Source: Patescibacteria group bacterium (lineage in GTDB: Bacteria > Patescibacteriota > Minisyncoccia > Portnoybacterales > GWB1-42-6). Taken from it: DNA of 35,592 nt. Shown here in pieces: positions 17,483 through 33,362 of this stretch. Positions within the stretch are counted from its first letter, which is position 1, and each line of letters begins with the position of its first letter. A model generated the notes under the pieces. It searched no databases and had not been told where the DNA came from. It saw only the letters and a program-made list of their open reading frames with translations. The position numbers were made by a program, and so were the translations under genes. The DNA is taken from assembly GCA_022709865.1 (NCBI GenBank), contig JAKLIA010000001.1, positions 1 to 35,592 of the forward strand, read 5' to 3'.

Positions 17483-17503
17483 TTTTTCTAGCGCCTTCCG
17501 TTT

Positions 17504-19345
17504 ATGCCAACCCTAACTAAAAACAAAAAAATCGCAATCGGTTTTATCTCGGTTTTTTTAGTTTTGGGTTCTATCTTTGTTTTTAATGTTTCCAACGCTC
17601 AAGCTGGCTTTCTTGATGCCATAACAAAGCCGGGGGATTTTGTAATGGAGGTGCTGGCGTGGGGAGCATATGGGATTTTATGGCTATTCAGCAAATTGAT
17701 AGCCATAGCAGCTTTTCTTTTGGAAACATCGTTCAAAATAGAGGACATCGGATTTACTAAGGCATCGATCGTAACTAACGGCTGGGAAGTAACCCGTGGG
17801 CTTTGCAATATGATATTTGCGCTTCTTTTATTATTAATGGCCTTTGACACAATTTTACAAACCGATAAGTTTCCGGTTAAGAGCATCCTACCCAAGTTAA
17901 TCATTGTTGCCCTAACAATTAATTTCAGCTTGATGCTCCTGGGCATTATTATTGATTTTTCCCAAATCCTCACGCGTTATTTCATCGATGCAGCCGGCGG
18001 TTCTTCCGGCAGCATTTCAGAACAATTAGCCAATAGCCTTAATATTGCCAAAGTTTTCCAAGTTAACACCAACCTCAACGACACTGCCAATATTCAAAAA
18101 AGTCTTGGTGGCGGCTCAGCTAGCCTGCTCCAAATATTTGGCACCCTGGTTTTTGGAATAGTAATCATATTAATTGCCACTTTTTCTTTAGCGGCCGGAG
18201 CAATTTTTATGCTCCTTCGATTAGTCTCTCTTTGGGTTTTATTGATTTTTGCCCCCATTGCCTGGATGGGCATGATAGCGCCCTTGCCGGGGCTAAAAGG
18301 TTTTATTGATGATTGGTGGAATAAGTTTTTTAAATGGACTTTCTTTGCGCCAATTTACGCCTTCTTTATTTATCTAGCTGTTTCCGTTGCCAGCGTTTCA
18401 AGCCTTTTTAATATTGGGTCATCGGCCACCCAAAAAGCTATAGGCAATGTATTTGTTAGTGATTTCTTATCGGATATAGGAAAGCTAATGCAGTATATAG
18501 TTGTTATTGCCCTGCTTATTATGGGCATCAAAACCGCCGAGCAAGTCGGGCTTTCAGGCGCTAACACCGTAGTTGGCTGGGGTAAAAAAGCGGGAAGCAA
18601 ACTAAGAAGTTTGCCTCAAAAAGCATTCGAGGCTACCGGCATTCCTGGAGGCGTCAAAGAGCGCTACGGAGAGCTCAAAGATAAATATCTGGCCGCTCCT
18701 CTAGCAAAGAGACAGGCGCAAGTAGCGACGGCTTTAGGCTCAAGCAGCGCCCTAGAAAAAAATATGAAAACCAGGGCTGGAGAATATGAGAAAAATAAAT
18801 CTTTGCCGGATATTCAAAGCCTGGCCAAAAGAGGGGACGCTTCAGCGGTCTATGCCCTAGCCAATATGGGAGAAATAGATGCAGCAACTTATCAAGCCTT
18901 CAGCTCTAACAACAAAAATGGGAAAATACAAAAATCAGTTGACGTAAAAGTTGGCAAAAAAAGAGCTGATCTCGTTGCTTTTAACAACGCCAAAGAGAAA
19001 GCCAAAAAGATCCTTAAAGAGAAAGCAACAGATCCTACTTATGCCGCAATTAAGGCCGCCAATCCAACATGGAGCGATAATGATATAGCGGAACAAATTG
19101 AAGACGACACCGTTGAACAAGAGATAGGGAAACTAACAACAGAAAAATTAACCGACCTAAAATGGTCCGAAATAGAAAAGAACTTGCTTTCTGGAAGTAA
19201 AGATAGGACCAGGATGGCATCGGCAACCTTTAAGTCTCTTAGCTCAATGATTAGCAAACCGGGGGTTCAAGCTGACCTTGCCAAAAGGTTAAGTCCAACC
19301 GATGCAGCAGCCATAAATAAATTAGTCGGCACAAATATAGTTTAA
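17504..19345 (+). CDS. Polytopic membrane protein, VirB6/TrbL-like by topology and context
   Basis: 613 aa. Signal peptide ending NAQA, then about 7 TM helices with a loop after TM1, then a ~250-aa Lys/Ala-rich hydrophilic C-terminal tail. The assignment rests on architecture and position next to VirB3/VirB4-like genes, not on a diagnostic motif. Confidence 0.45.
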   Translation: MPTLTKNKKIAIGFISVFLVLGSIFVFNVSNAQAGFLDAITKPGDFVMEVLAWGAYGILWLFSKLIAIAAFLLETSFKIEDIGFTKASIVTNGWEVTRGLCNMIFALLLLLMAFDTILQTDKFPVKSILPKLIIVALTINFSLMLLGIIIDFSQILTRYFIDAAGGSSGSISEQLANSLNIAKVFQVNTNLNDTANIQKSLGGGSASLLQIFGTLVFGIVIILIATFSLAAGAIFMLLRLVSLWVLLIFAPIAWMGMIAPLPGLKGFIDDWWNKFFKWTFFAPIYAFFIYLAVSVASVSSLFNIGSSATQKAIGNVFVSDFLSDIGKLMQYIVVIALLIMGIKTAEQVGLSGANTVVGWGKKAGSKLRSLPQKAFEATGIPGGVKERYGELKDKYLAAPLAKRQAQVATALGSSSALEKNMKTRAGEYEKNKSLPDIQSLAKRGDASAVYALANMGEIDAATYQAFSSNNKNGKIQKSVDVKVGKKRADLVAFNNAKEKAKKILKEKATDPTYAAIKAANPTWSDNDIAEQIEDDTVEQEIGKLTTEKLTDLKWSEIEKNLLSGSKDRTRMASATFKSLSSMISKPGVQADLAKRLSPTDAAAINKLVGTNIV

Positions 19346-19349
19346 CCTA

Positions 19350-20633
19350 ATGATAAAAGATTCTTTTATAAAATCTCTCCAAGAGTTTCAAGATGCCAAG
19401 AATTATAATCCTTGGCTTGTTTCTACTACAAAAAACCCGAGTGATGAAACGCCAGAAAAAGTAGAAGAAAGGCAAAAAAAGTTTTTGCAAATACCAGAAT
19501 CCGCACAAAACATATTAGCTTCACAAGATACAGCTAATATTATAAAAAAAATTAGCCAAGACCTTAAACTAACGCTTTGGCAAGCCGCTGAGATATCCCG
19601 ATCGGTCAGGGCTTATTATTTTAGAGAAATGGCCCCAGCAGAGATTATTTCTTCCTTAACAATAAACGCCGACATAGACACAAAGCGAGCCGAAGAGATT
19701 TACCAAAGGCTAGCCACAGAGATTTTTAATGCCCGCCTCGCCAGCCAAAGAAAATTGATCTATTTGCCTATAGATAAGGCCTTAACTGAATATCCCAAGA
19801 TAAAGAAACAAGCGATTAGCTCAAACCCAATTAAGATCCGCGGTTTCATCGATTTGGTCGCGCCTTCGGTTGAAAACTGGCTTCAAGATTATAAAGAGAC
19901 CGCTGGAGCTCAAGACCATGAGGCCGACGAAAGAGCGGAATATCTTTTTAACAGTCAAAACACCAAAAACCTAGCACAGCAAGACCGGCAACAGCTTTCT
20001 AAAGTAATTGAAGCCGTCGACGAGAACTCTACTATTGGGATAGATCCGGATAACCAACTAATCATTTTTGAACGGGCAGAAACAGAAAGCGAAGAAAAAC
20101 AGATAAAACCACAGCCAAGCATCCAGGCGGTTTTTAGCCAAAAAACTCTTCGCCAAATAGCTAAGGATAACAAAGATTTGCTAAACCAAAACCTAACTAG
20201 CGCCCCGATAAAAATTGCCGATTTTGAGCAACCGGTCCGCCCCACAATTAAAAATTGGCTGGTGGATTATGTAAAAATTAAAGGGGCCGGGCACCACGAA
20301 TCCCTGGAACGCGGCGATTATTTATTTAGTAACCCCAACGCCAAGCAATTATCAGAAACAGAGCGAAACTTAGTCTCGGCCATATTAAAAGCCTATGATG
20401 ATGATCTGCCTTTGCCTGTTAATGCTCAAGATCAAACTATTCTATTAGAAAATATAATAACAGAGAAAACAATTGCCCAGGCGCCTATTTCGGCCACCTC
20501 CTTAAATACTCCCAGCGGCTACCGAGAACCAATTGCCAAAGAAGATTTAATCGGGCCGCTAAAGAACCAAACACCACCGAAAAACACGCCCAAATTAAGC
20601 GGCAATATCATTGATTTAAAAGATATACAATAA
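19350..20633 (+). CDS. Soluble hypothetical protein with an internal ~85-aa duplication (operon gene 4)
   Basis: 427 aa with no TM. Repeat A covers aa ~157-241 (PIKIRGFIDLVAPSVENWLQDYKETAGAQDHEADERAEYLFNSQNTKNL...). Repeat B covers aa ~283-367 (PIKIADFEQPVRPTIKNWLVDYVKIKGAGHHESLERGDYLFSNPNAKQL...). Confidence 0.6.
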   Translation: MIKDSFIKSLQEFQDAKNYNPWLVSTTKNPSDETPEKVEERQKKFLQIPESAQNILASQDTANIIKKISQDLKLTLWQAAEISRSVRAYYFREMAPAEIISSLTINADIDTKRAEEIYQRLATEIFNARLASQRKLIYLPIDKALTEYPKIKKQAISSNPIKIRGFIDLVAPSVENWLQDYKETAGAQDHEADERAEYLFNSQNTKNLAQQDRQQLSKVIEAVDENSTIGIDPDNQLIIFERAETESEEKQIKPQPSIQAVFSQKTLRQIAKDNKDLLNQNLTSAPIKIADFEQPVRPTIKNWLVDYVKIKGAGHHESLERGDYLFSNPNAKQLSETERNLVSAILKAYDDDLPLPVNAQDQTILLENIITEKTIAQAPISATSLNTPSGYREPIAKEDLIGPLKNQTPPKNTPKLSGNIIDLKDIQ

Positions 20634-20636
20634 TTT

Positions 20637-20921
20637 ATGCGCTTTAATGTTCCGCAATTCGTTGATATTGAAGATACCATTATTGGGCCGCTAACGCTTA
20701 AACAATTTTTTCTGGTGATTGGCGGGGGAGTTGTGATCGCTATCTTGTGGTATATGTTCAAGCTTTGGTTTGTTTTTTTATTAGGCGTGCCTTTGGCGCT
20801 GGTTATTATAGCGATAGTCTTTGTTAAGATAGGTGGCCGGCCCATTACCCAAATTTTTACTTCTTGGCTGAATTATTGGATCAAACCCAGATTTTATACT
20901 TGGAAAAAAAGTAATAAATAA
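20637..20921 (+). CDS. PrgI/VirB3-like small membrane protein
   Basis: 94 aa. N-terminus MRFNVPQFVDIEDTIIGPLTLKQFF is followed by two TM helices. This is the pattern of PrgI-family (VirB3-analogue) proteins that precede VirB4 in Gram-positive-type T4SS. Confidence 0.6.
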   Translation: MRFNVPQFVDIEDTIIGPLTLKQFFLVIGGGVVIAILWYMFKLWFVFLLGVPLALVIIAIVFVKIGGRPITQIFTSWLNYWIKPRFYTWKKSNK

Positions 20922-20932
20922 TAATTTATTTT

Positions 20933-21562
20933 ATGGCTGCTCCGGTGCAACAAAAAATTGTGGTTGAAGAAATAAAAGAGGGGGTTGTTATCTTAAAAGG
21001 CGGCGATTTGCGCGGCGTTTTAATGGCTTCTTCTATTAACTTTTCTTTAAAATCCACCGATGAACAAGATTCTTTGATCTTTAAATACCAAAGTTTTTTA
21101 AACTCCCTTGATTTTCCTATTCAGATATTAATGGCCTCTCGGCATTTGAACATCGAAGAATACTTGGCTTCTGTTGAACAAAAAAGAAAAGAGCAAGACA
21201 ACGAATTATTGCAAATCCAAATCGCCGAATATTATGATTTTATAAAAAACTTAGTTGAGGTCGGCAATATTATGGACCAATCTTTTTTTGTTGTTGTGCC
21301 CTTGGCGCGCGTAGAAAAAAAAGAATCTGGAATAATTGAAAAATTAGGGATATTCCAAAGCTCAAAACCCAAAGGAAACGAAGAAACCAAGAGCTTTGAC
21401 GAATTAAGAGTTCAGCTTTGGCAAAGGCTAGAGTATGTGGGTTCGGGCCTGGCCGGCATAGGTATAAAGTCCACCATCTTAAATACAGAAGAATTAACCC
21501 AACTTTTCTATCGAATGTATAATATGGGCTCAAAAAATGTGCCCACCACCCCAAAAGAATAA
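20933..21562 (+). CDS. Hypothetical protein resembling a stand-alone VirB4 N-terminal-type domain
   Basis: 209 aa. The segment IVVEEIKEGVVILKGGDLRGVLMASSINFSLKSTDEQDSLIFKYQSFLNSLDFPIQILMASRHLNIEEYL follows the same pattern as the N-terminus of VirB4/TraE-type ATPases. It is in the same reading frame as the downstream VirB4 gene, separated by two stop codons. Confidence 0.45.
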   Translation: MAAPVQQKIVVEEIKEGVVILKGGDLRGVLMASSINFSLKSTDEQDSLIFKYQSFLNSLDFPIQILMASRHLNIEEYLASVEQKRKEQDNELLQIQIAEYYDFIKNLVEVGNIMDQSFFVVVPLARVEKKESGIIEKLGIFQSSKPKGNEETKSFDELRVQLWQRLEYVGSGLAGIGIKSTILNTEELTQLFYRMYNMGSKNVPTTPKE

Positions 21563-21592
21563 TCAAAAAAATAATTCCTGCACTTCATCTTT

Positions 21593-23404
21593 ATGCCATT
21601 TGATTTTTTCAAAAAACCAAACCCCGCTATAAATAATCCAGCAGTAAATCTGTCTTCGCCTTTTGAGGGCTCGCCGGAAACCAGCGGCCCCACAATAAAA
21701 GATTTGATCTCGCCAGCGGGCATTAAAATAGAATCTAGCTATCTGCAAGTTGACCAAAAACTTGCCCGCACCCTTTTTGTTTTTACTTACCCCCGGTATT
21801 TGTCCACCAATTGGTTCTCGCCGATCATGTCCCTGGATAAAGAGTTCAATGTCTCCATGTTCGTGCACCCGATAGAAACCCCTTGGATAATGAACCAGCT
21901 AAAGAAAAAAGTGGTTCAAGTCCAATCACAAATCAATGAACGCCAAGAAAAGGGGCAAGTGAGAGACCCGATGCTAGAAACAGCTTTAAATGATATTGAA
22001 GCTCTCCGGGATAATTTATTGCAGGGCAATGAAAAGTTTTTTAAGTTTGGCCTTTATATCACTATTTTTGGCGATAATGAGAAAGAATTAAATGACCTGG
22101 AAAATGAGATGCGCTCTCTCCTTGAAGGCCGCATGGTCTATATCAAGCCCGCCTCCTTCCAGCAAGAACAGGGCTTTAATTCCACTTTGCCAATGGCTAA
22201 AGACGAGCTACAGATCCACACTTCAATGAATACCGGGCCCCTCTCCAGTACCTTTCCCTTTGTCTCGGTCAATCTATCTGATAACAAAGGAGTTTTCTAC
22301 GGCATTAACCGGCATAATAATTCCTTGATCATTTTTGACCGTTTTAGTCTGGAGAACGCCAACGCCGTGGTTTTTGCCAAATCCGGCTCTGGCAAAAGCT
22401 ACACGGTTAAATTAGAGGTTTTGCGTTCTTTAATGATGGGAACGGACGTTATTATTATTGACCCGGAAAACGAATACCAATATCTAGCTGAAACCGTCGG
22501 CGGCTCTTTTATAAAGGTCTCTCTTAATTCCCCAAACCACTTAAACCCCTTTGACCTGCCAATTCCAGCCAAAGGAGAGCAGCCCGGAGACGTTTTGCGC
22601 TCTACCATAATTACCTTGGTAGGATTGTTGCGTATAATGCTTGGGGGCATTTCAGCAGCCGAAGATTCTATTATTGACCGCGCTATCAGCGAAACTTATG
22701 CTTCACGGGATATCACTCCGCAATCGGATTTTTCTAAGATCACTCCGCCGCTGCTTTCTGATCTTTATTCCATTTTAAAAAATACCGAAGGTGGCGCTTC
22801 ATTGGCTTCGCGCCTGGAACGTTTTATTACCGGGTCGTACTCGGGGCTATTTAATCAGCACACCAATGTTGAATTAAAAAATAAATTAATTTGTTTCTCT
22901 ATCCGCGATATGGAAGATGAGTTGCGGCCTATCGCCATGTACGTAGTGCTGCACTATATCTGGAACACCATTCGAGGCGAGCTTAAACGGCGAATCCTGG
23001 TGGTGGACGAAGCCTGGGTTATGATGCGCCACGATGATGCCGCCTCTTTCCTTTTTGGCATTGCTAAGCGTTGCCGTAAATATTATTTAGGGCTAACTAC
23101 TATCACACAAGACGTCGCTGACTTTATGAACTCGCCCTATGGCAAACCGATCGTCACCAACTCCTCGATGCAGATCCTTCTGCGCCAATCGCCGGCCACT
23201 ATTGATATTATTCAAAAAACCTTCAACCTAACCGAGCAAGAAAAATATTTATTGCTGGAATGCGGAGTGGGGGAGGGAATATTTTTTGCTGGGCTGCAGC
23301 ATGCCGCAATAAAAATTACCGCTTCTTATACCGAAGACCAGATCATAACTTCCGATCCGCGACAATTATTAAAAATCGAGAAAGCTAAAGAAGAATTAGC
23401 TTAA
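21593..23404 (+). CDS. virB4: VirB4/TraE/PrgJ-type T4SS ATPase
   Basis: 603 aa. N-terminal domain ISPAGIKIESSYLQVDQKLARTLFVFTYPRYLSTNWFSPIM, Walker A VVFAKSGSGKSYTVK (around nt 22384), DPENEY, Walker B RRILVVDEAW (around nt 23000) and GLTTITQDVADF. Confidence 0.8.
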   Translation: MPFDFFKKPNPAINNPAVNLSSPFEGSPETSGPTIKDLISPAGIKIESSYLQVDQKLARTLFVFTYPRYLSTNWFSPIMSLDKEFNVSMFVHPIETPWIMNQLKKKVVQVQSQINERQEKGQVRDPMLETALNDIEALRDNLLQGNEKFFKFGLYITIFGDNEKELNDLENEMRSLLEGRMVYIKPASFQQEQGFNSTLPMAKDELQIHTSMNTGPLSSTFPFVSVNLSDNKGVFYGINRHNNSLIIFDRFSLENANAVVFAKSGSGKSYTVKLEVLRSLMMGTDVIIIDPENEYQYLAETVGGSFIKVSLNSPNHLNPFDLPIPAKGEQPGDVLRSTIITLVGLLRIMLGGISAAEDSIIDRAISETYASRDITPQSDFSKITPPLLSDLYSILKNTEGGASLASRLERFITGSYSGLFNQHTNVELKNKLICFSIRDMEDELRPIAMYVVLHYIWNTIRGELKRRILVVDEAWVMMRHDDAASFLFGIAKRCRKYYLGLTTITQDVADFMNSPYGKPIVTNSSMQILLRQSPATIDIIQKTFNLTEQEKYLLLECGVGEGIFFAGLQHAAIKITASYTEDQIITSDPRQLLKIEKAKEELA

Positions 23405-23409
23405 AACTT

Positions 23410-23757
23410 ATGCCGGAAACAGATAATAAACAAACGAACGAAAAACAATCCACCCCCTTCCCCTCAGGCATGCTTTGTTTGGCTATTTTATTTGATCTGA
23501 TCGGCTTGGTTCCTATTCTTAATTTTTTTACTGAAACTCTGGCCGGATTAATCTTTGGCATGTGGCAATCTTCTTATAACCCCAAGCTTGATCCGGTTCT
23601 TTCTTTCTTTATAGCCAAAATAATTGATGTTGCCTCGCTTGGGATCTTGCCCAGCAACACCGGCATTGTTGTTTATTCTTATCTAAAAAAGAAAGCAGCC
23701 AGCGCGGCACAAACTCCTGCGGGAATGGCCCTGGCCAATAAAATGCTAAAAAGCTAA
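23410..23757 (+). CDS. Small membrane protein (operon gene 8), unknown function
   Basis: 115 aa with 2-3 hydrophobic helices (MLCLAILFDLIGLVPILNFF, LAGLIFGMW, IIDVASLGILP...IVVYSYL). 5-nt gap from virB4. Confidence 0.5.
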   Translation: MPETDNKQTNEKQSTPFPSGMLCLAILFDLIGLVPILNFFTETLAGLIFGMWQSSYNPKLDPVLSFFIAKIIDVASLGILPSNTGIVVYSYLKKKAASAAQTPAGMALANKMLKS

Positions 23758-23761
23758 AAAT

Positions 23762-24511
23762 ATGCTCAATAAAATTAAAAAATCAATTCTCATAAATCTC
23801 TTGCTGTTAATCGCACTAATTAGCATTGGACTTTATATTGCCGAGCAAACACCCAGCGCCAACGCCGGCACTAATGATTTTTTAATGACCTGGTCCAGCA
23901 ATTCTTATATCCCGCCGCAATACGCCGGCAAGGCTTTGCCTACCATTGGAACAACAGTAGAAATAGTGGTTTTGCCTGTTAAAAAACTTTCTCAAGACGC
24001 AGACGCTTTTACCTATCTTTGGGTGTTAGATGGTAAACAAGCCTATTCTTCCCAGGGGAAAGGAAAAAGCTCTTTCCAATTCCAAATTACCAAATGGGAC
24101 GGGGATAAACATGAAGTCGAAGCTCGGGTGTTAGACGCACAAGAAAATATGCTTTGGCGGGGATTTTTAACTATAAAAGTCCGGCAGCCGCAAATATTAT
24201 TTAACACGCCAAACAACAACTATGCTGTTTCCGAATCTATGTCGGTGAACACAGGAAAAGAACTGACAATTTATGCTATTCCTTTATTTTTCCGCGCCAA
24301 CAAGATTTCAGATCTGGTTTTTAATTGGCAATTAAATGAACAAACCCTAACTCCCGCGCTAGGGGAGCAAAACCCGGACAAGCTGATCATCAAGGTTCCG
24401 GCTGGCACTTTATCTGGTTCTGTTTTTAAAAATCTGTCTTTGTCTATTCAAAATCCGCTAGATGCCCTGCAGCAAATATCCGCCGGCTTAAACATAGAAA
24501 TAAAACAATAA
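23762..24511 (+). CDS. Membrane-anchored secreted protein with two beta-sandwich-like repeats (operon gene 9)
   Basis: 249 aa with an N-terminal TM (ILINLLLLIALISIGLYIA). Two ~90-aa segments share an FxYxWxLDG-like pattern (FTYLWVLDGKQ and LVFNWQLNEQT). Confidence 0.5.
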   Translation: MLNKIKKSILINLLLLIALISIGLYIAEQTPSANAGTNDFLMTWSSNSYIPPQYAGKALPTIGTTVEIVVLPVKKLSQDADAFTYLWVLDGKQAYSSQGKGKSSFQFQITKWDGDKHEVEARVLDAQENMLWRGFLTIKVRQPQILFNTPNNNYAVSESMSVNTGKELTIYAIPLFFRANKISDLVFNWQLNEQTLTPALGEQNPDKLIIKVPAGTLSGSVFKNLSLSIQNPLDALQQISAGLNIEIKQ

Positions 24512-24515
24512 ACTC

Positions 24516-25388
24516 TTGCCTCATTTTTTCTCAAAAAATAAATTGTTTCTTTTCTGTTTGGCAGGCTGGTTTCTGTTCTTTTTCGCTAGCAATGTCTTGG
24601 CGGCCGGCTATGAGCTAGAAGTTAAGCTCCCCGGCATGCCCGATTCTGTTTCCGACCCGGGGGCATACATGAGGTATCTTTTTATCTTCGGCGTATCTTT
24701 AGCTGGATTCCTGGCAGTAGGCATGATCATCTATGGCGGAGTAAAATATATGCTAGCAGCTTCTGTGGGCTCAACCCAAGATGCCAAAGATAAGATCTTA
24801 GGGGCTTTGGGTGGAGTCGCCTTGATACTTTGTTCGTATTTATTGCTCTATACTATTGATCCGAGCTTAACGAATCTGTCGCCCCTGCCGGTAAGCCAAA
24901 TTATGGCCGCTGATGTGGAAGCTCCCAGCCCTCAAGACTCCGGCCTAACCGAAGCCACCACTGCAACCGCGACTGGAACAGGAGAGCTTGCTTGTAAAAC
25001 CAATAAAATATGCCAAGACATAGAAAGTGGAAAAGTAAGCTCTACTTTGACCAACAGCCTCCGCTCTTTGCCGGTCGAGGTCACCGTTACCGAAACAACC
25101 GGCAGCCACGGTTGCGCTTCCTCTGATAGCTGTGTTTCTGGCGCTGCCTGCGGCACTTCAACGCATTGCAGCGGCAACGCAGCTGATATCAGGGTCTCTA
25201 ATTTAACTACTGAACAAAAAAAAGAAGTAATGCAAAGTCTTAGCCAAAATAAATGCGTTGACCAGCTTTTTTATTCCGGGTTTCCGGAATATTGCAAGGC
25301 GGGCGGCGGGCAGAATGCCTCAAAAAGTAAAAGCTGCTCCGCCCATTCCGACCATATTCACTACAGCGTTAAATCCGGCTGCACTTAA
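24516..25388 (+). CDS. VirB2/TrbC-like pilin hairpin fused to a Cys-rich M15/LAS-type peptidoglycan-hydrolase-like domain
   Basis: TTG start; there is no in-frame ATG before the conserved module. Signal peptide ...ASNVLAA. Two TM helices flank a short polar loop (YLFIFGVSLAGFLAVGMIIYGGV - KYMLAASVGSTQDAKDKI - LGALGGVALILCSYLLLYTI). The C-terminal ~165 aa have 12 Cys and the motifs STHCSGNAAD (SxHxxGxAxD, nt 25158..25187) and DHIH (nt 25350..25361). Confidence 0.65.
   Translation: MPHFFSKNKLFLFCLAGWFLFFFASNVLAAGYELEVKLPGMPDSVSDPGAYMRYLFIFGVSLAGFLAVGMIIYGGVKYMLAASVGSTQDAKDKILGALGGVALILCSYLLLYTIDPSLTNLSPLPVSQIMAADVEAPSPQDSGLTEATTATATGTGELACKTNKICQDIESGKVSSTLTNSLRSLPVEVTVTETTGSHGCASSDSCVSGAACGTSTHCSGNAADIRVSNLTTEQKKEVMQSLSQNKCVDQLFYSGFPEYCKAGGGQNASKSKSCSAHSDHIHYSVKSGCT
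24630..24884 (+). repeat. Copy 1 of a 255-nt pilin-module direct repeat
   Basis: Aligns without gaps to 25505..25759 (offset 875 nt) with 7 mismatches, all synonymous. The encoded 85 aa are identical. Confidence 0.9.
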
Positions 25389-25399
25389 ATTAAAAAATT

Positions 25400-25978
25400 A
25401 TGAGCCCTACTCTTAATAAAAAAATCATTGCCTTATCCTTCGCCGGCTTATTTTTACTGTTGGCTGCTCCTGCTTGCTACGCCTATAAAGTAGAGGTTAG
25501 TTTGCCCGGCATGCCCGATTCCGTCTCCGACCCGGGGGCATACATGAGGTATCTTTTTATCTTCGGCGTATCTTTAGCCGGATTCCTGGCAGTAGGCATG
25601 ATCATCTATGGCGGAGTGAAATACATGCTAGCAGCTTCTGTGGGCTCAACCCAAGACGCCAAAGATAAGATCTTAGGGGCTTTGGGTGGAGTCGCCTTAA
25701 TACTTTGTTCGTATTTATTGCTCTATACTATTGATCCGAGCTTAACGAATCTGTCGCCCAACATTAAACCCGTAGGTAATATTTCCTCTCCGTCAGAAAC
25801 CCCCCGTTATGGCATAACCACCACAGAAACAACAATTACTCAATACTTTGATTCTACTGCAGTAAACTATAATACAGCAGAAAAATGCGAAGCAATCGGA
25901 AAAAGCTCCTATGGAAGCCGTTTTGTCAGTTCCACTTTTAATAGTCAAAATTGCATAATTACAATAAAAAAATTATAG
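25400..25978 (+). CDS. VirB2/TrbC-like pilin paralog with a short unrelated C-terminal domain
   Basis: 192 aa with a signal peptide ending ACYA. The 85-aa pilin module (PGMPDSV...SLTNLSP) is identical to the upstream paralog. It is followed by a ~70-aa Thr-rich tail with 2 Cys (GITTTETTITQYFDS...CEAIGK...NCIITIKKL). Confidence 0.65.
   Translation: MSPTLNKKIIALSFAGLFLLLAAPACYAYKVEVSLPGMPDSVSDPGAYMRYLFIFGVSLAGFLAVGMIIYGGVKYMLAASVGSTQDAKDKILGALGGVALILCSYLLLYTIDPSLTNLSPNIKPVGNISSPSETPRYGITTTETTITQYFDSTAVNYNTAEKCEAIGKSSYGSRFVSSTFNSQNCIITIKKL
25505..25759 (+). repeat. Copy 2 of the 255-nt pilin-module direct repeat
   Basis: See copy 1: about 97% nucleotide identity and 100% amino-acid identity. 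Confidence 0.9.
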
Positions 25979-25993
25979 TAATATTATAAGATT

Positions 25994-27172
25994 ATGAATA
26001 CAAAAAAAATATTGATCATCGCTTCAATTTTATTGGTTCTGTCATTGGGCGCTCTTTTAGTTTATAATTTATTTTTTAAACCTTCTTCCACCGAAACAAC
26101 GGAAAACGGCAGCACCCTGCCAACCTCCAGCGGAGGAAGCAACGGCTCTAACTCCTCTTTGCCAAACAGCAGTAATTCTAGCGGCTCAGGCAGCCAAACA
26201 GACTCAAAGATCAGGGTTCTTAGCAAAGAGCCGGTTTTATCACCAACCATGGGCGAAGACGGCAAAACTATTAAATATTATGTCAGTTCAAATGGCAATG
26301 TTTTTGAATCAGACTTTCTGGGCGCCAACATTAAAAAAATCTCTTCTGTTGCCTTAAACGGCCTATTGAAAGCCGTCTGGTCGCCAGATAAAACTAAAGT
26401 GATCGGCTTTTTCTCTGATAACAATAAAATTAAAAAATATTTCTACGATTATAACAATAAGCAGTCTTCTTTGCTTAACGAAAAAATGGGAAACGTTGCC
26501 TGGTCGCCGGATAGCAAGCGCATTGCTTATCAATTTGTTGACGCAACCACCGGCCAGCACAATATCAGTATAGCCAACCCTGATGGCTCTAATTGGAAAA
26601 ATATTTTCAAAACTCGCCTGGACGATTTGATCGTGGAATGGCCGGGAAAAGAAAAAATATCTATTAGGCAGGCTCCCAGCGGCTTAGCCCAAGGCATACT
26701 TTATGCCATCAATTCCGAAACCGGCGACTTCAATAAAGTTTTAAGCGATATTTTTGGTTTAAATGTTAAGTGGTCTCCCAAGGCTGATAAAATCCTTTAT
26801 TCAGCCACCAACGACCAAGGAAAAAATCCTAAACTATATCTAACCGACAGCACCGGCACTAACCAAAAAGACCTGAATCTTTCCGGCTTGATAGACAAGT
26901 GCGTTTGGAGCACCGATGACCGGACTATTTTTTGCGCCTTGCCAAAAGAACTTTCCGCTAATGCCACTTGGCCAGATGATTATTATAAGGGTATTGTCAT
27001 CCTAGCGGACGACTTCTATAAAATCAACCTCGAGACTAACGAAAAAACAAAAATCCTGGGCTCCACCAGCCAGATCAGCTTTGATGCCCAGGAATTAATT
27101 ATTTCGCCAAAAGAAGACTACCTATTTTTTGTTAACAAGCACGATGGCCTGCTTTATAGCCTAAAAATATAA
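25994..27172 (+). CDS. Membrane-anchored TolB-like (PD40/WD40-like) beta-propeller protein; last gene of the operon
   Basis: 392 aa. N-terminal TM, then a Ser/Gly/Asn-rich linker (SSGGSNGSNSSLPNSSNSSGSGSQ). Repeated (V/A)WSPD-type blades follow (AVWSPDKTKV, VAWSPDSKRIAY, VKWSPKADKILY, CVWSTDDRTIF). Confidence 0.65.
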   Translation: MNTKKILIIASILLVLSLGALLVYNLFFKPSSTETTENGSTLPTSSGGSNGSNSSLPNSSNSSGSGSQTDSKIRVLSKEPVLSPTMGEDGKTIKYYVSSNGNVFESDFLGANIKKISSVALNGLLKAVWSPDKTKVIGFFSDNNKIKKYFYDYNNKQSSLLNEKMGNVAWSPDSKRIAYQFVDATTGQHNISIANPDGSNWKNIFKTRLDDLIVEWPGKEKISIRQAPSGLAQGILYAINSETGDFNKVLSDIFGLNVKWSPKADKILYSATNDQGKNPKLYLTDSTGTNQKDLNLSGLIDKCVWSTDDRTIFCALPKELSANATWPDDYYKGIVILADDFYKINLETNEKTKILGSTSQISFDAQELIISPKEDYLFFVNKHDGLLYSLKI

Positions 27173-28421
27173 CTAGCCAAAAGATCAGCGCTAGGTCGTT
27201 TTTCCAGAACGGGGTATCTATTAAACCGTGCATCAAAAAAAATACCATTATTGCCATTAAAAAAACCTCTGGCAGTGATGGTATTTTTAATAGAACTCTT
27301 TTTATTTGCTTAAAAAATCCTATTATCAGCCAAAAAAATCCGACTAGCCCCGCCAACCCCGCCTGCAACCACCAAGCTAAAAATAAATTATGGGGCTGCG
27401 GCACCGCCCATTCCAGATACGGCACAGAAAAATATTGCTGATAAGCCAAATAATATTTTTGGAATAAGCCCGGCCCAACTCCTAAAAACCAATTATCTTT
27501 TAAGATTTCCAGCGCCGCCTGCCAGACCATCAGGCGCGACTGCCAAGAAGAGCGTGGCGAAGAAAAAATGTCTAATAATTTTTCGCTCTTGGCGCCAAAT
27601 AATTGGGAAGCCAAAACCAGGCTGCCAAGCAGCAAAGCGCCACCAAACAACACTAGCCACTGTTTTTTGGTCATTCCTTTTAGAGCTCCTAAAACTAAAG
27701 CCAAAAAGATCAAGGCCGCGCCTAATCCCAGCCAAGCGCCATAAGAATAAGTAAAATATAAAATTGCCAGCAACAAAACATAAACTATAAGCCATAAGCT
27801 TTTTTGGTAATTTTTTTTAAACGCCGGCCAAAGAGCGACGCCGGCCAAAAGCCCGGGCACCAGCCACATAGCCAAATGGTTAGGGGAGAGATAAAAAGAA
27901 GACAGGCGCCCATCAAAAGTCAGCTGGTTAAAAAATAAAAAAAATAAACTTATTGCCGCCACAATCCCAGACGAAGCAAATAAAGCAGAAAAAAACAGGT
28001 TCAATAGGTTTTCTTTTTTAAAAGCGCTTCCCAAAACAAAGCAAAAAGCCAGCGGAGCAATAAAATAAGCCTTTAAAATACCAAAGCTAACACGCCAATC
28101 AGCAGAAAACACAGAGGCTAAAAAAACACCGATCAAGACCAAAATTATAGCCAAAATAAAGTTTCGGCTATAACCCTTTATCCATTGGCTATTAATCTCG
28201 TGGTTAATAATTTTTTTAACCAGCCAGGCTCCCACGAAAAGCCAGATCAAAGCCTCTAAAACCGTTATGGGCCAAGAGTTTATTTTTAATAAATAAAGAG
28301 GTGCCAAAAAAATAACCAGCCAGGCGCTAGCTTTCGGCCAACGCCAAGAGACAACCGCAAAAGCGGCCAACCCCAAACCAAGTAAGATCAATTGCCAAAC
28401 TAGATGCAAAGAATAGAACAT
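27132..28421 (-). CDS. O-antigen ligase / Wzy_C-family polytopic membrane protein (paralog 1)
   Basis: 429 aa with 10 or more TM helices. Periplasmic-loop motif VPQPHNLFLAWWLQAGLAGL (HN-x-[FY]-L...G-L-x-G), typical of the Wzy_C/O-antigen ligase family. Its 3' end overlaps the convergent upstream gene by 41 nt. Confidence 0.7.
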   Translation of the reverse strand: MFYSLHLVWQLILLGLGLAAFAVVSWRWPKASAWLVIFLAPLYLLKINSWPITVLEALIWLFVGAWLVKKIINHEINSQWIKGYSRNFILAIILVLIGVFLASVFSADWRVSFGILKAYFIAPLAFCFVLGSAFKKENLLNLFFSALFASSGIVAAISLFFLFFNQLTFDGRLSSFYLSPNHLAMWLVPGLLAGVALWPAFKKNYQKSLWLIVYVLLLAILYFTYSYGAWLGLGAALIFLALVLGALKGMTKKQWLVLFGGALLLGSLVLASQLFGAKSEKLLDIFSSPRSSWQSRLMVWQAALEILKDNWFLGVGPGLFQKYYLAYQQYFSVPYLEWAVPQPHNLFLAWWLQAGLAGLVGFFWLIIGFFKQIKRVLLKIPSLPEVFLMAIMVFFLMHGLIDTPFWKNDLALIFWLVIFLGYKAGHRAC

Positions 28422-29737
28422 TAATTTTTTTCTTGGCTAATTATTGCTTCATCTCTTAAAACTGCCAGGCCCAACACCACCATTAAAAAAGCTAACACCG
28501 TCGGGTTAAAAATTGCACTTTCAAAAAATGAATGGGTTAAAAAATAAGCTAAAGCCCCCAGAATACCAAAGGCAACAACCGGCGCCTGGTCTATTTTTTT
28601 TATGGCCGCCTTAATGGCCGCCCAGAATAATAGAAGCCAAGACGCTAGCCCCAAAAGTCCTGTTTCCGCTAAAATATCCAAATATAAATTATGGCTCGTA
28701 ATTGAATTGCGGTAATCCTGCCCCAGCCCCACCGACAAAGAATAGTTTCCCAACCCCACGCCCAATAACGGGCTTTTTTTGATCACCTCTATGGAATCTT
28801 GCCAGATAGCTAGGCGCCCGGCATTTGACCCTTCGCTTAGATCAAAGCTTGAAAAGAGGCGCGATACCACCGGCCAGCCAAAAAACAAAAAAATGACAGC
28901 AGCAACCATCAGGCTGGCGAAAAAGAACTTTTTTGCCTTAGCGCCAAAAGAACGCCCACCAAAAAAGGCAAGAACAATTAAAGAAGAAATCACCCCCAAA
29001 TAACCGCCGCGGGAAAAAGTTAGCAACAAAACAATAAATAATAAAAAATAAATAATAAAAAAAACTAACCGGCGTTTTTTAGAAAAAAGCGCCCAAGCCA
29101 GAGCCAGGGGAGAGGTTAACCCTAAATAAAAAGATAGCATATGGGGATCTGGAAATAGCCCGATTGCCCTCATAATTGTTTGGCCGCCAATAGCCACTTG
29201 CCAACTAGGAGAAGCAGCCACCAAAGAGCCGAATTGGGCGCCAGAGAATAAGGGTAAAATATGCTCTGTCCAAAAACCCATAACAACTTCTTGCCCAAAA
29301 ATAAATTGGCCCAAAAATTGCGCCAAAGCAACAAGAGCAGAAATAATTGCGCCACCCAAAATCACATAGGCTAGTTTTTGCCAATCTTTGGCGTTTTTTA
29401 TAAAAGACTTAACCAGCCAAAACAACGGGAAAATTGAAGCGAAAACCAAAAGTTTGCGCATGCCCCAAACCTGATTATTGGCCACTAAGATCGAAAGGGC
29501 CGCCAAAGAAAAAAGGGTTATTAAAAAGATCGATGCCGGTTCTTTAATAAAAGAAACTAGTCGTTCTTTATTCTGGCTGAACTCCTTAATTAGCCAAACA
29601 AAAAATAAGCCTAAAATTAAAATCCGCCCAGACATTAAATCTATATCTGAGGTTAGATTTAATGCCAATTGAAAAGGCAAATAAGCAACCAATAAGGAAA
29701 AAGCGGCCAAAAGAAGAGAGTCTAAGCGCTTGCTCAT
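28421..29737 (-). CDS. O-antigen ligase / Wzy_C-family polytopic membrane protein (paralog 2)
   Basis: 438 aa. Motifs LLTFSRGGYLGV and SITSHNLYLDILAETGLLGL. Stop and start overlap the downstream paralog (TAATG at 28421). Confidence 0.7.
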   Translation of the reverse strand: MSKRLDSLLLAAFSLLVAYLPFQLALNLTSDIDLMSGRILILGLFFVWLIKEFSQNKERLVSFIKEPASIFLITLFSLAALSILVANNQVWGMRKLLVFASIFPLFWLVKSFIKNAKDWQKLAYVILGGAIISALVALAQFLGQFIFGQEVVMGFWTEHILPLFSGAQFGSLVAASPSWQVAIGGQTIMRAIGLFPDPHMLSFYLGLTSPLALAWALFSKKRRLVFFIIYFLLFIVLLLTFSRGGYLGVISSLIVLAFFGGRSFGAKAKKFFFASLMVAAVIFLFFGWPVVSRLFSSFDLSEGSNAGRLAIWQDSIEVIKKSPLLGVGLGNYSLSVGLGQDYRNSITSHNLYLDILAETGLLGLASWLLLFWAAIKAAIKKIDQAPVVAFGILGALAYFLTHSFFESAIFNPTVLAFLMVVLGLAVLRDEAIISQEKN

Positions 29738-29744
29738 AATAATT

Positions 29745-31169
29745 TTATAATTTTATTTCTTCTCCCTTTATTAGGCTTTTAAGCTCCTGCCGCGGCAAGC
29801 CGCGCAAAAAATATAAAACCAAAAAATAAACAATAACGGCGATAACAATTAAAAACCCTAAATTAAAGCCAGCCAACAGCCACAAGACCAACGCCATAGC
29901 TATCGACGCCAACAAGCTTTTTAAAAAGACACTGAACGATGGCAACCAATGGAAAAAATGATAAATAGCCGCGGCCATTAAAATCGCCACCAAAGCTTCG
30001 GTTAACACAGTGGTTGTTGCGGCCGCATAATAAGAATAACGCGGAATAAGGATTAGGTTGGCCGCCACATTAAAAACGGCCCCAACAGCTGAAATCCATA
30101 AAAGCATTTTTTGTTTTTCTAAAGCGATCAGAACGTAAGAAAAAAGCGTCCCTAAAAAGATTATTCCTACCGCCACTATTAAAATATTTAAAATTATTGC
30201 CGATTCACTGTATTTTCCGCCCCCCAAAAGCCCAATAATAGCGGGAGAAAGAAAAATGGTTCCCAATATCAAAGGAGCGATCAACACAACTAAAATATCG
30301 CTTCCTCGCTGAAAGATATCTTTAAACTTTATCTGGTCTGTGAAAGCAGAACGAGAAAGAAGTGGCATTATTAATCCCACGAACATAGAGGGAAAGAAAA
30401 TTAAGCTCTCCAGAACCTTATAGGGCAGGCGATAGGCGCCCACATCCGCCGCCGGTTTAAGCGCCGACAAAAACAAAGAGTCCGAAGAAAAATATATCAT
30501 CACCAAAACACTAGAGATAGCCAAAGGATAACCCTGCTTAAAAATATTTTTCCAATAAGGCCAATCAAAAGCCAATTTTAAATTACAATATTTTTTGGCG
30601 CCCAAAAAAACCAAAAGGAAGTTAGCTATGCCGCTTATACTTAAAGCCGCCACAATATATAAAAAATCGTAGCCACGCCAAATAAACAGCCAAACCAAAC
30701 CTAATTGAATAACTCGGCCCGCCAACTCGGCTATCGCCACCCAACCCATCTGAAGATATTTTTGGAATAAGCCCATTAAAACCTGGCTATTGGCCAAAAA
30801 CCAAAAACCGGCCATACCAACTAAAATCCCGAGCCTGGCCTGTCCGGAATAAGGAAAAAGGAAACTAACCAATGGGGCCACCGCAAAAATAAAAAAACCG
30901 CTCAGCAATCTTATGGTAAAGATATTGCTAGCGATCTTTTGTTCGTCTGCCCCGGGCCGGGATATCTCCCGCACCATTAATTGGTATAATCCCAAGTCCG
31001 CTAAAACGGCAAATATTCCACCGAAAGTGAGCATGATAGAATATTCACCCCACTCGTTCTTAGTTAAATATCGAGTGATCAACCCTATAGTTAAAAGAGC
31101 CAGAAGCGTGCCCAAAACTCTTGCTGTCGCCGAAACTATTGTATTGGTGGCGATCTTTTTTGCCAACAT
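29745..31169 (-). CDS. Wzx/MOP-superfamily oligosaccharide flippase-like protein
   Basis: 474 aa with about 14 TM helices. The N-terminus KIATNTIVSATARVLGTLLALLTIGLITRYL...WGEY is typical of polysaccharide-biosynthesis flippases. Confidence 0.7.
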   Translation of the reverse strand: MLAKKIATNTIVSATARVLGTLLALLTIGLITRYLTKNEWGEYSIMLTFGGIFAVLADLGLYQLMVREISRPGADEQKIASNIFTIRLLSGFFIFAVAPLVSFLFPYSGQARLGILVGMAGFWFLANSQVLMGLFQKYLQMGWVAIAELAGRVIQLGLVWLFIWRGYDFLYIVAALSISGIANFLLVFLGAKKYCNLKLAFDWPYWKNIFKQGYPLAISSVLVMIYFSSDSLFLSALKPAADVGAYRLPYKVLESLIFFPSMFVGLIMPLLSRSAFTDQIKFKDIFQRGSDILVVLIAPLILGTIFLSPAIIGLLGGGKYSESAIILNILIVAVGIIFLGTLFSYVLIALEKQKMLLWISAVGAVFNVAANLILIPRYSYYAAATTTVLTEALVAILMAAAIYHFFHWLPSFSVFLKSLLASIAMALVLWLLAGFNLGFLIVIAVIVYFLVLYFLRGLPRQELKSLIKGEEIKL

Positions 31170-31213
31170 TTTTTTAAACCATCAGATAAGTAGCCAAAGA
31201 GAATTAAAAACTA

Positions 31214-31702
31214 TTATATTTGGCCTAGATCGATTGTTCCGGGATTTCCCGCCGGCTTAATAACTACCCGGCGTTCTTCTCCGTCTCCTTCTGATTCTGT
31301 TTTAATGCCGGGCAGATCAATTAAGGTCATATGAATTATTCGCCGCTCATAAGCATTCATCGGCGGCAGATACCGCGCCGAACCCTGTCTAACCACTTCT
31401 CGCGCCAAACTTTGCGCCGCGCTTTTTAACATCTCGATTCTTTCTTGCTGATAATTATTAATATCCAGGGTTAAACGGGGAGCATCAACAATTTTCTTGC
31501 TAACCATCGCCCGAGCCAATTGCTGCAAAGAGCGCAGACTGTCTCCGTTGCGGCCTATTAAATAGCCCGCCTCCTGGCTTTCTATTTGCACCAGCACGCT
31601 ACCTTCGCTTTCAGACAGCTCCGCCACGTGCCCTTCAAGGCCGGAACTGCTTATTAACCCTTCTATTAATTCTTTAATTTTTGCTAATTTTTCCTGTTCC
31701 AT
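31214..31702 (-). CDS. jag: Jag/KhpB-type RNA-binding protein (KH plus R3H domains)
   Basis: 162 aa. KH-like segment VLVQIESQEAGYLIGRNGDSLRSLQQL and R3H segment YERRIIHMTLIDLPGIKTESEG. Conserved position downstream of yidC. Confidence 0.85.
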   Translation of the reverse strand: MEQEKLAKIKELIEGLISSSGLEGHVAELSESEGSVLVQIESQEAGYLIGRNGDSLRSLQQLARAMVSKKIVDAPRLTLDINNYQQERIEMLKSAAQSLAREVVRQGSARYLPPMNAYERRIIHMTLIDLPGIKTESEGDGEERRVVIKPAGNPGTIDLGQI

Positions 31703-32429
31703 TTTTTTTAATTACATAATATTGCTGTCCGATACCAAACAGGGTTGTTACTATCCAATAAAGAGTTAAGCCTGCCGGCAAGTTCCAAGCGATAAAAATT
31801 GTGAATAAGGGCATAAAATAAACCATCTGCTTATTCATTATGGCGCTAAAATCAGAGCCCTTGCCGCTAGAGGGCGTTTGGGTCGCAGACATCATTTTCG
31901 ACTGCCAAAAAGTCAGAACGCCTGCTAAAATCGCCATTATTTTATTAGCCGCCGCTAAGCTTATTAACCCTAAAAACATCGGGTCGATCGCCTCTGGCCG
32001 GCTAACAAAAGAATATAAAAGATTTAAGCTTTCCGGCTTTAAGCCATTCCAGAACACTTGGTATAGAGCGATCAAGATCGGCAATTGAATTAAGATCGGC
32101 AAGCAGCCAGAAGCAGGATTAATATTATTACTCTTATAAAGCTCCATTAAGGCCTGGGACTGTTTAACCTTATCTGTTGGGTGCTTAGCTTGTATATCTT
32201 TGATTTGCGGCTGAAGGTCGCCTAGCGCTTTTTGGGATTTGATCGCCTTTTGGTTTAAAGGGAACAGGGCTAAGCGGATAATAATAGTCAATAAAATTAT
32301 AGCCACGCCAAAATCATGCGGCGGGATTATGTTATATAAAAAAACAAGTCCGTTAAACAACGGCTGATAAAGAACCTCATTAAAGATATTTACAATAAAA
32401 CTTATCATATTATTAATTGTTAAAAACAA
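31674..32429 (-). CDS. yidC: Membrane protein insertase YidC (short Gram-positive-type form)
   Basis: 251 aa. Motifs PLNQKAIKSQKALGDLQPQIKDIQAKH, MELYKSNNINPASGCLPILIQLPILIALY and AGLTLYWIVTTLFGIGQQY. It overlaps the jag start by 29 nt. Confidence 0.9.
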   Translation of the reverse strand: MFLTINNMISFIVNIFNEVLYQPLFNGLVFLYNIIPPHDFGVAIILLTIIIRLALFPLNQKAIKSQKALGDLQPQIKDIQAKHPTDKVKQSQALMELYKSNNINPASGCLPILIQLPILIALYQVFWNGLKPESLNLLYSFVSRPEAIDPMFLGLISLAAANKIMAILAGVLTFWQSKMMSATQTPSSGKGSDFSAIMNKQMVYFMPLFTIFIAWNLPAGLTLYWIVTTLFGIGQQYYVIKKNGTGKISKN

Positions 32430-32444
32430 TAAGCTTACAGATAA

Positions 32445-32675
32445 TTATAGAAGGGGATCATAGCCGCCCTTATGGAAAGGATGGCAGCGGCTTAACCTAA
32501 TTAAACCTTTTTTTATTCCCGCCGCTAATCCATGTTTTTCTATCGCTTGTTTAGTATATTCTGAGCAAGAGGGATAAAAACGGCAAACCGGCGTTCCTTG
32601 GCGAAAAAGCCCTTGGTCTGGAGACAAAATCAATTGGTAAAGATTAATTAAAAATATTATCCCTTTTTTAAACAT
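32445..32675 (-). CDS. yidD: Membrane protein insertion efficiency factor YidD
   Basis: 76 aa with CRFYPSCSEYTKQAIEKHG...RCHPFHKGGYDP. Confidence 0.9.
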   Translation of the reverse strand: MFKKGIIFLINLYQLILSPDQGLFRQGTPVCRFYPSCSEYTKQAIEKHGLAAGIKKGLIRLSRCHPFHKGGYDPLL

Positions 32676-33009: not shown

Positions 33010-33014
33010 ACTCC

Positions 33015-33149
33015 TTAAACGGTCAGTTTTTTTCTTTGCTTCCGCCTTCTTTTGGCTAGAACCCGGCGGCCATAAGAAGTCCTTTGGCGAACCAAAAAAC
33101 CATGAGTCCTTTTTCTCTTTCTTTTCTTGGGTTGATAAGTGACGCTCAT
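33015..33149 (-). CDS. rpmH: 50S ribosomal protein L34 (too short for the ORF track)
   Basis: Manual minus-strand translation gives [44 protein letters not shown] (44 aa). ATG at 33149..33147 and TAA at 33017..33015. This is the canonical L34 sequence and position. Confidence 0.9.
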
Positions 33150-33229
33150 TGAAGTATTTTAATAATTATTGTAGTTTTAGTATACTATTTTAAAAGCCAT
33201 AAGTCAATTTAGATTTTTTGTTTTTTCGG

Positions 33230-33260: not shown

Positions 33261-33362
33261 AAAACATCTTTTCTTGCTATTTTTACGATATTTTTTTACA
33301 CTTGACGGTATGTTATGCTAGAGGCAAGGAGGGGATAATCTCAATTTGTCGTTACCACCAAT

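Follow-up and report, generated by a model that had tools for sequence, protein, structure and literature searches.

The window analysed here, the whole stretch of 35,592 nucleotides of contig JAKLIA010000001.1 (assembly GCA_022709865.1, Patescibacteria, Portnoybacterales), contains at 24516..25388 on the + strand a gene for a type IV secretion system (T4SS) pilin that carries a C-terminal domain of predicted LAS fold, hereafter called the head. The gene starts with TTG and encodes 290 residues followed by a stop codon, as seen in the list of open reading frames (ORFs) and modelled at full length with AlphaFold2. All parts of the protein are given with their positions on this strand. A signal peptide (residues 1-29, 24516..24602; MPHFFSKNKLF...SNVLA, with an inferred cleavage site before AG) coincides with the hydrophobic segment 9-31 and with model helix 3-29. 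It is followed by a T4SS pilin hairpin of two transmembrane helices (residues ~48-115, 24657..24860; helices 48-80 and 84-114), assigned by homology to members of the T4SS_pilin family. A flexible Pro/Thr/Ala-rich linker (residues 121-155, 24876..24980), whose length and sequence differ among relatives, leads to the head, a zinc-peptidase-like domain of Hedgehog / DD-peptidase / M15-like type assigned by AlphaFold2, Foldseek and hhalign (residues 156-290, 135 aa, 24981..25385). The full-length model, built with 11 sequences, has a mean predicted local distance difference test score (pLDDT) of 76.8, with helices 3-29, 48-80 and 84-114 and a confident globular domain C-terminal to the linker. 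Block-mean pLDDT falls to 43-63 in residues 121-160 and below 50 in residues 123-132 and 151-154, and the linker shows one short strand and otherwise no regular secondary structure. A Foldseek search with this full-length model returned generic helical hairpins only. The initial annotation, made from the DNA sequence, had placed the domain at 24885-25388, which corresponds to residues 124-290 plus the stop; the location holds, but the folded domain comprises ~135 aa (156-290) and not ~165 aa.

Hydropathy identifies three hydrophobic segments, namely the signal peptide (9-31), TM1 (52-80) and TM2 (92-115). The positive-inside rule suggests that the loop at residues 77-93, which contains Lys, is cytoplasmic; once the signal peptide has been cleaved off, the C-terminal head would then lie outside the membrane. 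The earlier proposal that the C-terminus is external is thus consistent with the three hydrophobic segments and the AlphaFold2 helices. In a direct Pfam search the window protein scores 18 bits against T4SS_pilin (PF18895; cut-off 26.6), and nine of ten relatives match the same model, the best at 1.3e-5. The link is closed by a 497-aa protein from another locus, L001, described below, which passes the T4SS_pilin cut-off at 46 bits and whose three hairpins align with the window hairpin in BLASTP at E = 2e-19, 3e-12 and 4e-10. The signal peptide and two-helix hydrophobic hairpin are homologous to the VirB2-like T4SS pilin family.

The initial annotation had read STHCSGNAAD as an exact fit to the SxHxxGxAxD signature of M15 peptidases, and this is borne out: the motif occupies residues 215-224 (25158..25187), with the putative zinc ligands H217 and D224 seven residues apart. 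The pattern S.H..G.A.D occurs a single time in the six-frame translation of the whole window, against a chance expectation, calculated from amino-acid composition, of 0.008 in six frames and 3e-5 in this protein. Near the C-terminus lies an H-x-x-H-x-H motif, HSDHIH (25344..25361), in which the catalytic role is tentatively given to H280 and that of third zinc ligand to H282; H277 is invariant as well. H198 (25107..25109, within TETTGSHG) is also invariant and aligns with H134 of Sonic hedgehog (Shh, human numbering). The head thus contains both an H-x(3-6)-D motif for two zinc ligands (H217-x6-D224, aligned with Shh H140/D147) and an H-x-H motif for the catalytic His and the third ligand (H280-I-H282), which together, in the form H-x6-D and H-x-H, are the defining LAS/DD-peptidase signature; in mouse numbering, the Shh zinc ligands are H141, D148 and H183 (Roelink 2018, PMC6027127). 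The distal DHIH (residues 279-282), earlier suggested to supply the third ligand and the catalytic residue, survives in part: its HIH aligns with Shh H180/H182, but D279 varies (D, T or N). We rejected D279 as a catalytic Asp of the M15C D-x-x-H kind, since several relatives have T or N at this position. As D279 is poorly kept, the alignments point to H280 as the likely catalytic residue.

Thirteen relatives, which share 35-69% identity with the window protein, leave T192, H198, S215, H217, D224, H277, H280, I281 and H282 invariant. A222 is invariant in the sets of 10 to 12 sequences and nearly so among the 13. The head contains five His, and all of them are kept in these 13 relatives. One relative, P0009, has zero Cys, yet retains all the His and the Asp, which indicates that the His/Asp set, and not the Cys, forms the functional core.

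Sequence comparisons with known families repeatedly lead to LAS proteins. When ten members of the family were scanned, the Pfam matches were all sub-threshold, and most were to LAS-fold families: Peptidase_M15_3 (PF08291) was matched by 5 of the 10 (best E = 0.003) and HH_signal (PF01085) by one (E = 0.0037), the best member E-values for VanY (PF02557) and Peptidase_M15_4 (PF13539) were 0.068 and 0.028, and Extensin-like_C also appeared among the weak matches. PHROG endolysin family 894 was matched at E = 8e-4. A 10-sequence profile searched against PDB sequences gave Hedgehog N-domains as the 22 best of 35 matches (best E = 0.0025), in which the Hedgehog segments SLHYEGRAVDI and AHIHCSVKA pair with the two motifs of the head. 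The window protein alone, a 4-sequence profile and the Cys-free P0009 alone found nothing meaningful among PDB sequences. Aligned by hhalign to human ShhN, a 12-sequence profile reached 91.6% probability and E = 8e-7, with H198, H217, D224, H280 and H282 of the window protein paired with human Shh H134, H140, D147, H180 and H182, respectively. Shh H134 has been assigned a catalytic role.

The structure prediction agrees with this. A domain-only AlphaFold2 model from 12 sequences has a pLDDT of 93.7 and a predicted template modelling (TM) score of 0.88, and its overall fold, an antiparallel central sheet packed on helices, appears to be that of LAS proteins, if with weak match scores. In Foldseek against the PDB, 48 of the 50 matches listed are LAS proteins, with probabilities up to 0.92; they include MepA (1u10/1tzp), Sonic, Indian and Desert hedgehog, the Streptomyces albus zinc DD-peptidase (1lbu), VldE and LysECD7, and further Ply500 (2vo9, TM 0.52), VanY, ChiX and LdcB. 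Against BFVD, the matches are mainly phage proteins annotated as 'Peptidase M15A', cell-wall hydrolases and tape-measure proteins, with probabilities up to 1.0 and TM up to 0.59. The structural argument lies in the uniformity of these lists. The LAS- or M15-like fold that the initial annotation proposed to look for in profile searches and structure prediction was found, at weak scores.

Among LAS proteins, the head is in sequence closest to the Hedgehog N-domain and its bacterial Hh/DD-peptidase relatives, which are the best PDB profile matches and are among the top Foldseek matches. Common to both are the H-x6-D motif (SxHxxGxAxDI), the H-x-H motif (HIHxSVK) and a preceding 'VTE...GxH' strand-loop. 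Pairwise identity in structural alignments is 16-19%, and the differences are marked. The Ca2+-binding acidic cluster of Hedgehog (GWDED and others) is deleted in the window protein; of the Ca2+-site residues E90, E91, D96, E127, D130 and D132, only E127 has an aligned equivalent (E193, in VTE). Of the features that define Hedgehog proper, the zinc motif, the general-base Glu (E177 in mouse) and the Ca2+ residues, the zinc motif alone is present. The head further differs in a Cys-rich insert of 13-16 aa between H198 and H217, in its ten Cys and in its fusion to a membrane pilin hairpin, whereas Hedgehog is a secreted or lipidated ligand. The likeness to the LAS peptidoglycan peptidases, namely MepA (M74, 1u10), the S. 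albus Zn DD-carboxypeptidase (M15A, 1lbu), the Ply500/T5-type L-Ala-D-Glu peptidases and ChiX (M15C), and VanY/LdcB (M15B), lies in the predicted fold, the His/Asp/His zinc-ligand pattern and the weak Pfam matches to M15_3, VanY and M15_4. The H-x-H motif is shared with M15A, MepA and Hedgehog, in contrast to the E-x-x-H of VanX/VanY, and the Asp of the M15C D-x-x-H motif (D279 here) is not conserved in the window family. Phage virion-associated lysins (tape-measure or tail proteins with M15A and lytic transglycosylase domains), the top structural matches in BFVD, offer the parallel of a structural filament protein with an M15A-like peptidase that breaches a wall; they have no pilin hairpin, and the likeness is at the level of the fold only (13-26% identity). 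The sub-threshold scores and the missing counterparts of the Hedgehog Ca2+ and Glu residues place the head outside the current M15 Pfam families and outside the Hedgehog family proper, and we file it, from predicted structure and motifs, as a putative new, divergent family within the LAS / Peptidase_MD clan (MEROPS clan MD). The earlier proposal of an M15/LAS-type domain tethered to a pilin is backed by four independent lines, the Pfam trends, the profile and hhalign comparisons, AlphaFold2 with Foldseek and the invariance of the ligands, but no curated M15 model was passed, and by sequence the nearest types are Hedgehog and M15A (H-x6-D with H-x-H), not VanX/VanY.

The Cys-rich loop of the head (residues 199-214, 25110..25157), seen in the alignments between H198 and the H-x6-D motif, adjoins the putative active site. 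At 85-87, its pLDDT is lower than that of the domain model as a whole. The loop is present neither in ShhN nor in the Cys-free P0009, and it is longer in another relative, P0008. The head contains 10 Cys (160, 166, 200, 206, 212, 218, 247, 260, 274 and 289) and not 12 as initially counted; the protein's other two Cys lie elsewhere, C14 within the signal peptide and C106 within TM2. Among relatives Cys are lost pairwise, 160/166 in three sequences, 206/212 in one and 260/274 in one, which suggests that these are disulfide partners in an extracytoplasmic domain. The head probably holds five disulfides.

The head-domain family is rare. Only 8 clusters (E <= 0.001) were recovered when 1.84 billion representative proteins were searched exhaustively with HMMER. 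In the six that are full-length (239-309 aa), the domain matches C-terminally and the alignment includes the pilin hairpin, which is also retained in one of the two remaining, fragmentary clusters. Between 3 and 6 relatives of the head domain came from word-indexed searches, and nine further loci from a metagenome scan. A scan of GTDB species representatives with a narrow alignment gave one locus, on the same contig as locus L002; as the patterns were narrow, this count is a lower bound. Every full-length relative has the same pilin hairpin N-terminal to the domain, so that the domain is known only as a pilin fusion. A word-indexed search with the pilin hairpin returned 5 short pilins and no fused domains, a result that is uninformative on how frequent such fusions are. 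Of the named relatives, the closest is from a Parcubacteria genome. In the relative P0002 (Parcubacteria GW2011_GWA2_43_9b), an N-terminal subdomain of the head of ~45 aa is absent when compared with an otherwise identical metagenome ORF (L006, 5524-6405): the sequence jumps from '...DSGLTE' to 'TTGSHG'. The gap is due to an in-frame deletion between 'LTE' and 'VTE', or else to an artefact of assembly.

Directly downstream, at 25400..25978 on the same strand, a second pilin paralog of 192 aa, identified by Pfam and by repeat and codon comparison, has the same stalk and a small, unrelated C-terminal head of ~70 aa. The shared stalk is encoded by a 280-nt direct repeat (24605..24884 and again 25480-25759) with 94% nucleotide identity. 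At the protein level the 76-aa hairpins of the two paralogs are 100% identical; of the codon differences between them, 5 are synonymous and 0 non-synonymous. The same arrangement recurs in two other genomes, where the within-genome stalk differences (synonymous/non-synonymous) are 1/0 in L002 (5951-7466) and 21/2 in L009 (5539-7112), while stalk identity between genomes is 59-75%. The second paralogs have small heads that vary and contain Cys. Stalks that are identical under selection and carry different heads suggest a shared assembly interface and possibly co-assembly; the identity looks like the outcome of concerted evolution or of selection for such an interface. The described VirB2-like pilin arrays of Patescibacteria (Wang 2023, PMC10633639; PMC12102498) similarly consist of tandem pilins downstream of virB4, in a monoderm-type T4SS cluster without a recognisable relaxase. 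They differ in having 2-11 divergent small pilins with a mean identity of 25% and a maximum of 54%, as against the 100% identical stalks and different heads in the window.

A second kind of pilin-tethered hydrolase is found in L001, where a gene at 1281-2774 encodes the 497-aa protein mentioned above, in which three tandem T4SS-pilin hairpins precede a lytic transglycosylase domain of canonical SLT type (E = 3.9e-28). This gene stands directly after the gene for P0009, the Cys-free pilin-LAS protein, and this neighbourhood indicates that pilin-tethered wall hydrolases are a recurring design. The adjacent pilin-LAS and pilin-SLT genes mirror the pairing of peptidase and glycosidase in the T4SS hydrolases TraG and PrgK of Gram-positive bacteria (PMC12102498). 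In the source record of L001 (GCA_038849925.1, JAWCMI010000036.1), P0009 is labelled 'pilin [Candidatus Nanoarchaeia archaeon]'. Beside its T4SS genes, however, this contig encodes YidC, YidD, the RNase P protein, L34 and the N-terminus of DnaA, all of bacterial type, and the bin probably represents Patescibacteria sequence that was misclassified or contaminated.

The pilin gene of the window lies in a monoderm-type T4SS cluster. Upstream of it on the + strand, Pfam and NCBIfam identify PrgI (VirB3-like, 20637-20921), a TrsD/TraC-like protein (20933-21562) and a VirB4-type ATPase (21593-23404), which ends 1.1 kb before the pilin gene. The gene order PrgI, TraC-like, VirB4, small ORF, ~245-aa ORF and pilin is conserved in L002, L009 and L010. 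KsgA is encoded upstream of the cluster, and the downstream region (27132-34739) contains two Wzy_C proteins (O-antigen-ligase-type), a polysaccharide-biosynthesis protein (flippase-type), Jag (KH/R3H), YidC, RnpA and DnaA. The adjoining YidC, RnpA and DnaA place the T4SS cluster beside the replication origin, a location described for Paceibacteria (Quinonero-Coronel et al. 2025, PMC12102498). The proximity to dnaA, rnpA and ksgA is a further trait shared with the described pilin arrays. Pfam recognises no further hydrolase in the cluster (14394-27172) and no SLT, CHAP or M23 catalytic domain in the window protein, which is likewise not detected by VirB1, TrsG and CD419 profiles.

From the observed architecture, fold class, motif conservation, exclusive fusion to pilins and genomic context we infer zinc binding, catalysis, a substrate and a target wall as follows. 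H217, D224 and H282 would hold one Zn2+, and H280, helped by H198 and/or H277, would activate a water molecule. The enzyme may then cleave peptidoglycan at a peptide bond, either in the stem peptides or in the cross-links. Its covalent tie to the pilin stalk would confine this action to sites where the pilin is inserted or polymerised, and a local gap in the wall could thereby be opened for the T4SS or pilus. By analogy, the head would play the part that separate membrane-anchored hydrolases such as VirB1, PrgK and TraG play elsewhere, none of which is recognisable in this cluster. The producer's own wall is the most likely target; the chief alternative, which is compatible with the first, is a host's wall where the two cells touch. 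We consider it the most likely reading, at about even odds, that the head is indeed such an active, pilin-tethered zinc peptidase that cuts peptidoglycan peptides locally, with a VirB1-like function and most probably on the producer's own wall. The overall reading rests on prediction and concerns a rare family.

Several observations weigh against this assignment. The window protein passes none of the curated Pfam M15/LAS thresholds, with 15.1 bits for Peptidase_M15_3 against a cut-off of 23.2. Foldseek E-values are weak (best 1.5e-2 in the PDB and 7.7e-4 in BFVD) and TM scores are 0.35-0.59, or 0.26-0.52 against the LAS peptidoglycan peptidases; these modest values point to a divergent branch of the LAS fold. 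In the hhalign alignment the general-base Glu of Shh (E176/E177) or VanX has no clear equivalent, and the Hedgehog N-domain itself combines a classic, intact LAS zinc site with a disputed catalytic role (PMC6027127). The large ORFs of the cluster at 15461-19345 have no family assignment and could hide another hydrolase, and a LysM and Peptidase_M23 protein is encoded at 7019-8209 on the - strand, about 6-7 kb upstream of the cluster, whose first ORF is at 14394. The latter, another LAS-type wall peptidase, is probably a housekeeping or division enzyme. Finally, a family this rare cannot be a general wall-opening solution of Patescibacteria T4SSs.

The same active peptidase could instead serve as a drill or weapon that is carried on an extended T4SS pilus. 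Mixed there with the paralog of the same stalk, it would cut host peptidoglycan at the contact site and give an episymbiont access to its host, in analogy to the virion-associated M15/SLT lysins on phage tails or tape-measure proteins. We regard this as possible though not probable. Among the top structural matches from the viral library are tape-measure proteins as well as cell-wall hydrolases of several domains, M15A and transglycosylase included, and a heavily disulfide-bonded domain suits extracellular exposure. Identical stalks under purifying selection in three genomes are what one filament with different heads would lead us to expect, and the heads do differ among related genomes (M15-like, SLT, small Cys-rich). 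The T4SS and pilin arrays of Patescibacteria are moreover essential for epibiotic growth and have been proposed as a conduit to the host (PMC10633639, PMC12857230). However, a pilus is hypothetical for this system and only hypothesised for Patescibacteria at large (PMC12857230), a 135-aa head on every subunit may clash with the packing of a VirB2-type filament, and the cluster of L010 has no recognisable pilin other than the fusion. Nor does the analysis contain any pointer to a host or its wall chemistry. An extension of the drill idea, in which paralogs with identical hairpins and different enzyme or binding heads co-assemble in some Patescibacteria into an enzymatic drill against the host wall, one stalk with interchangeable heads, is doubtful in our view. 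If true, a T4SS pilus with catalytic subunits would be a previously undescribed route for episymbionts to breach their hosts.

An unlikely alternative to any cleavage is that the head is a pseudo-active LAS module of the Hedgehog kind, whose zinc cleft binds a stem peptide, a host glycan-peptide or a partner protein, so that it would act as an adhesin or wall anchor. This fits the Hedgehog N-domains as nearest sequence-profile relatives and the missing equivalent of the general-base Glu; the Hedgehog zinc site mediates binding of HHIP and Patched while its catalytic role is debated (PMC6027127), and an adhesin role appears vacant, as PrgB-type adhesins are not found in Patescibacteria T4SS clusters (PMC12102498). 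The conservation pattern argues against it: H280, H198 and H277 are invariant besides the three ligands at 35-69% identity, which is more than binding alone usually keeps. The Hedgehog Ca2+-site residues are missing, and the neighbour of P0009 in L001, the pilin-SLT fusion, has a canonical enzyme domain. That the motif arose by chance in a Cys-rich extracellular domain of unrelated fold is extremely improbable, and we consider this explanation excluded. It could appeal to the fact that the window protein alone reaches no significant curated Pfam or PDB sequence match; we rejected it on the low chance expectation within the protein (3e-5) together with the invariance of the motif residues in all 13 relatives and with the LAS fold as the common outcome of searches by profile, by profile-profile comparison and by structure.

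Patescibacteria T4SSs are described as essential for the epibiotic lifestyle, with pilins unlike those of other monoderm T4SSs and mostly without a recognisable VirB1 (PMC12102498, PMC12857230, PMC10633639); most pilin-bearing genomes have no VirB1, and VirB2-like pilin arrays are reported (PMC12102498). Known T4SS peptidoglycan hydrolases, including PrgK and TraG, are summarised in the same work (PMC12102498). With VirB1 (SLT), PrgK of pCF10 (LytM/SLT/CHAP), TraG of pIP501 (SLT and CHAP) and TcpG the head has in common that it is encoded in a T4SS cluster, tethered to the membrane and predicted to act locally on the wall so that the machine can be assembled. These hydrolases differ from it in fold, which is SLT, CHAP or M23 and not LAS, and in their anchor, a dedicated N-terminal transmembrane helix in place of a pilin hairpin. 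The resemblance is functional and not one of homology. The initial annotation knew of no hydrolase fused to a pilin hairpin, and in the Patescibacteria T4SS literature that we searched, with incomplete coverage, we likewise found no description of pilin-hydrolase fusions or enzymatic heads. The enzyme fold and the need of T4SSs for a hydrolase are already known. New, as far as we could determine, are the joining of such a domain to a pilin hairpin, a divergent LAS family that is rich in disulfides, and paralogs that share an identical stalk. A pilin with its own wall-cutting domain would be one concrete answer to the problem of wall opening in some lineages, and the family extends the Hedgehog/DD-peptidase fold by a bacterial branch that is very divergent. 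Together with the pilin-SLT fusion, the identical stalks with different heads suggest that these pilins are modular carriers of extracellular activities. As the domain is small, confidently modelled and offers clear point mutants, the idea is directly testable.

At the start of the T4SS cluster, an ORF at 14394-15449 contains a bacterial TSP3 repeat, and three large ORFs (673, 613 and 427 aa) at 15461-19345 and 19350-20633 have no significant Pfam or NCBIfam match; VirB6-like, VirB8-like or hydrolase functions could be concealed in these ORFs. A 115-aa small membrane protein (23410-23757) and a 249-aa protein (23762-24511), both with no family matches, are encoded between virB4 and the pilins. 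Their counterparts, which keep the position and are of similar size, have 159/248 aa in L002, 148/243 aa in L009 and 106/243 aa in L010, and the two are likely to be uncharacterised T4SS components. At 25994-27172 a 392-aa protein with a Ser/Gly/Asn-rich N-terminal stretch gives weak beta-propeller matches (PD40 / DPPIV_N-like), and it is kept directly downstream of the pilins in L001, L002, L009 and L010.

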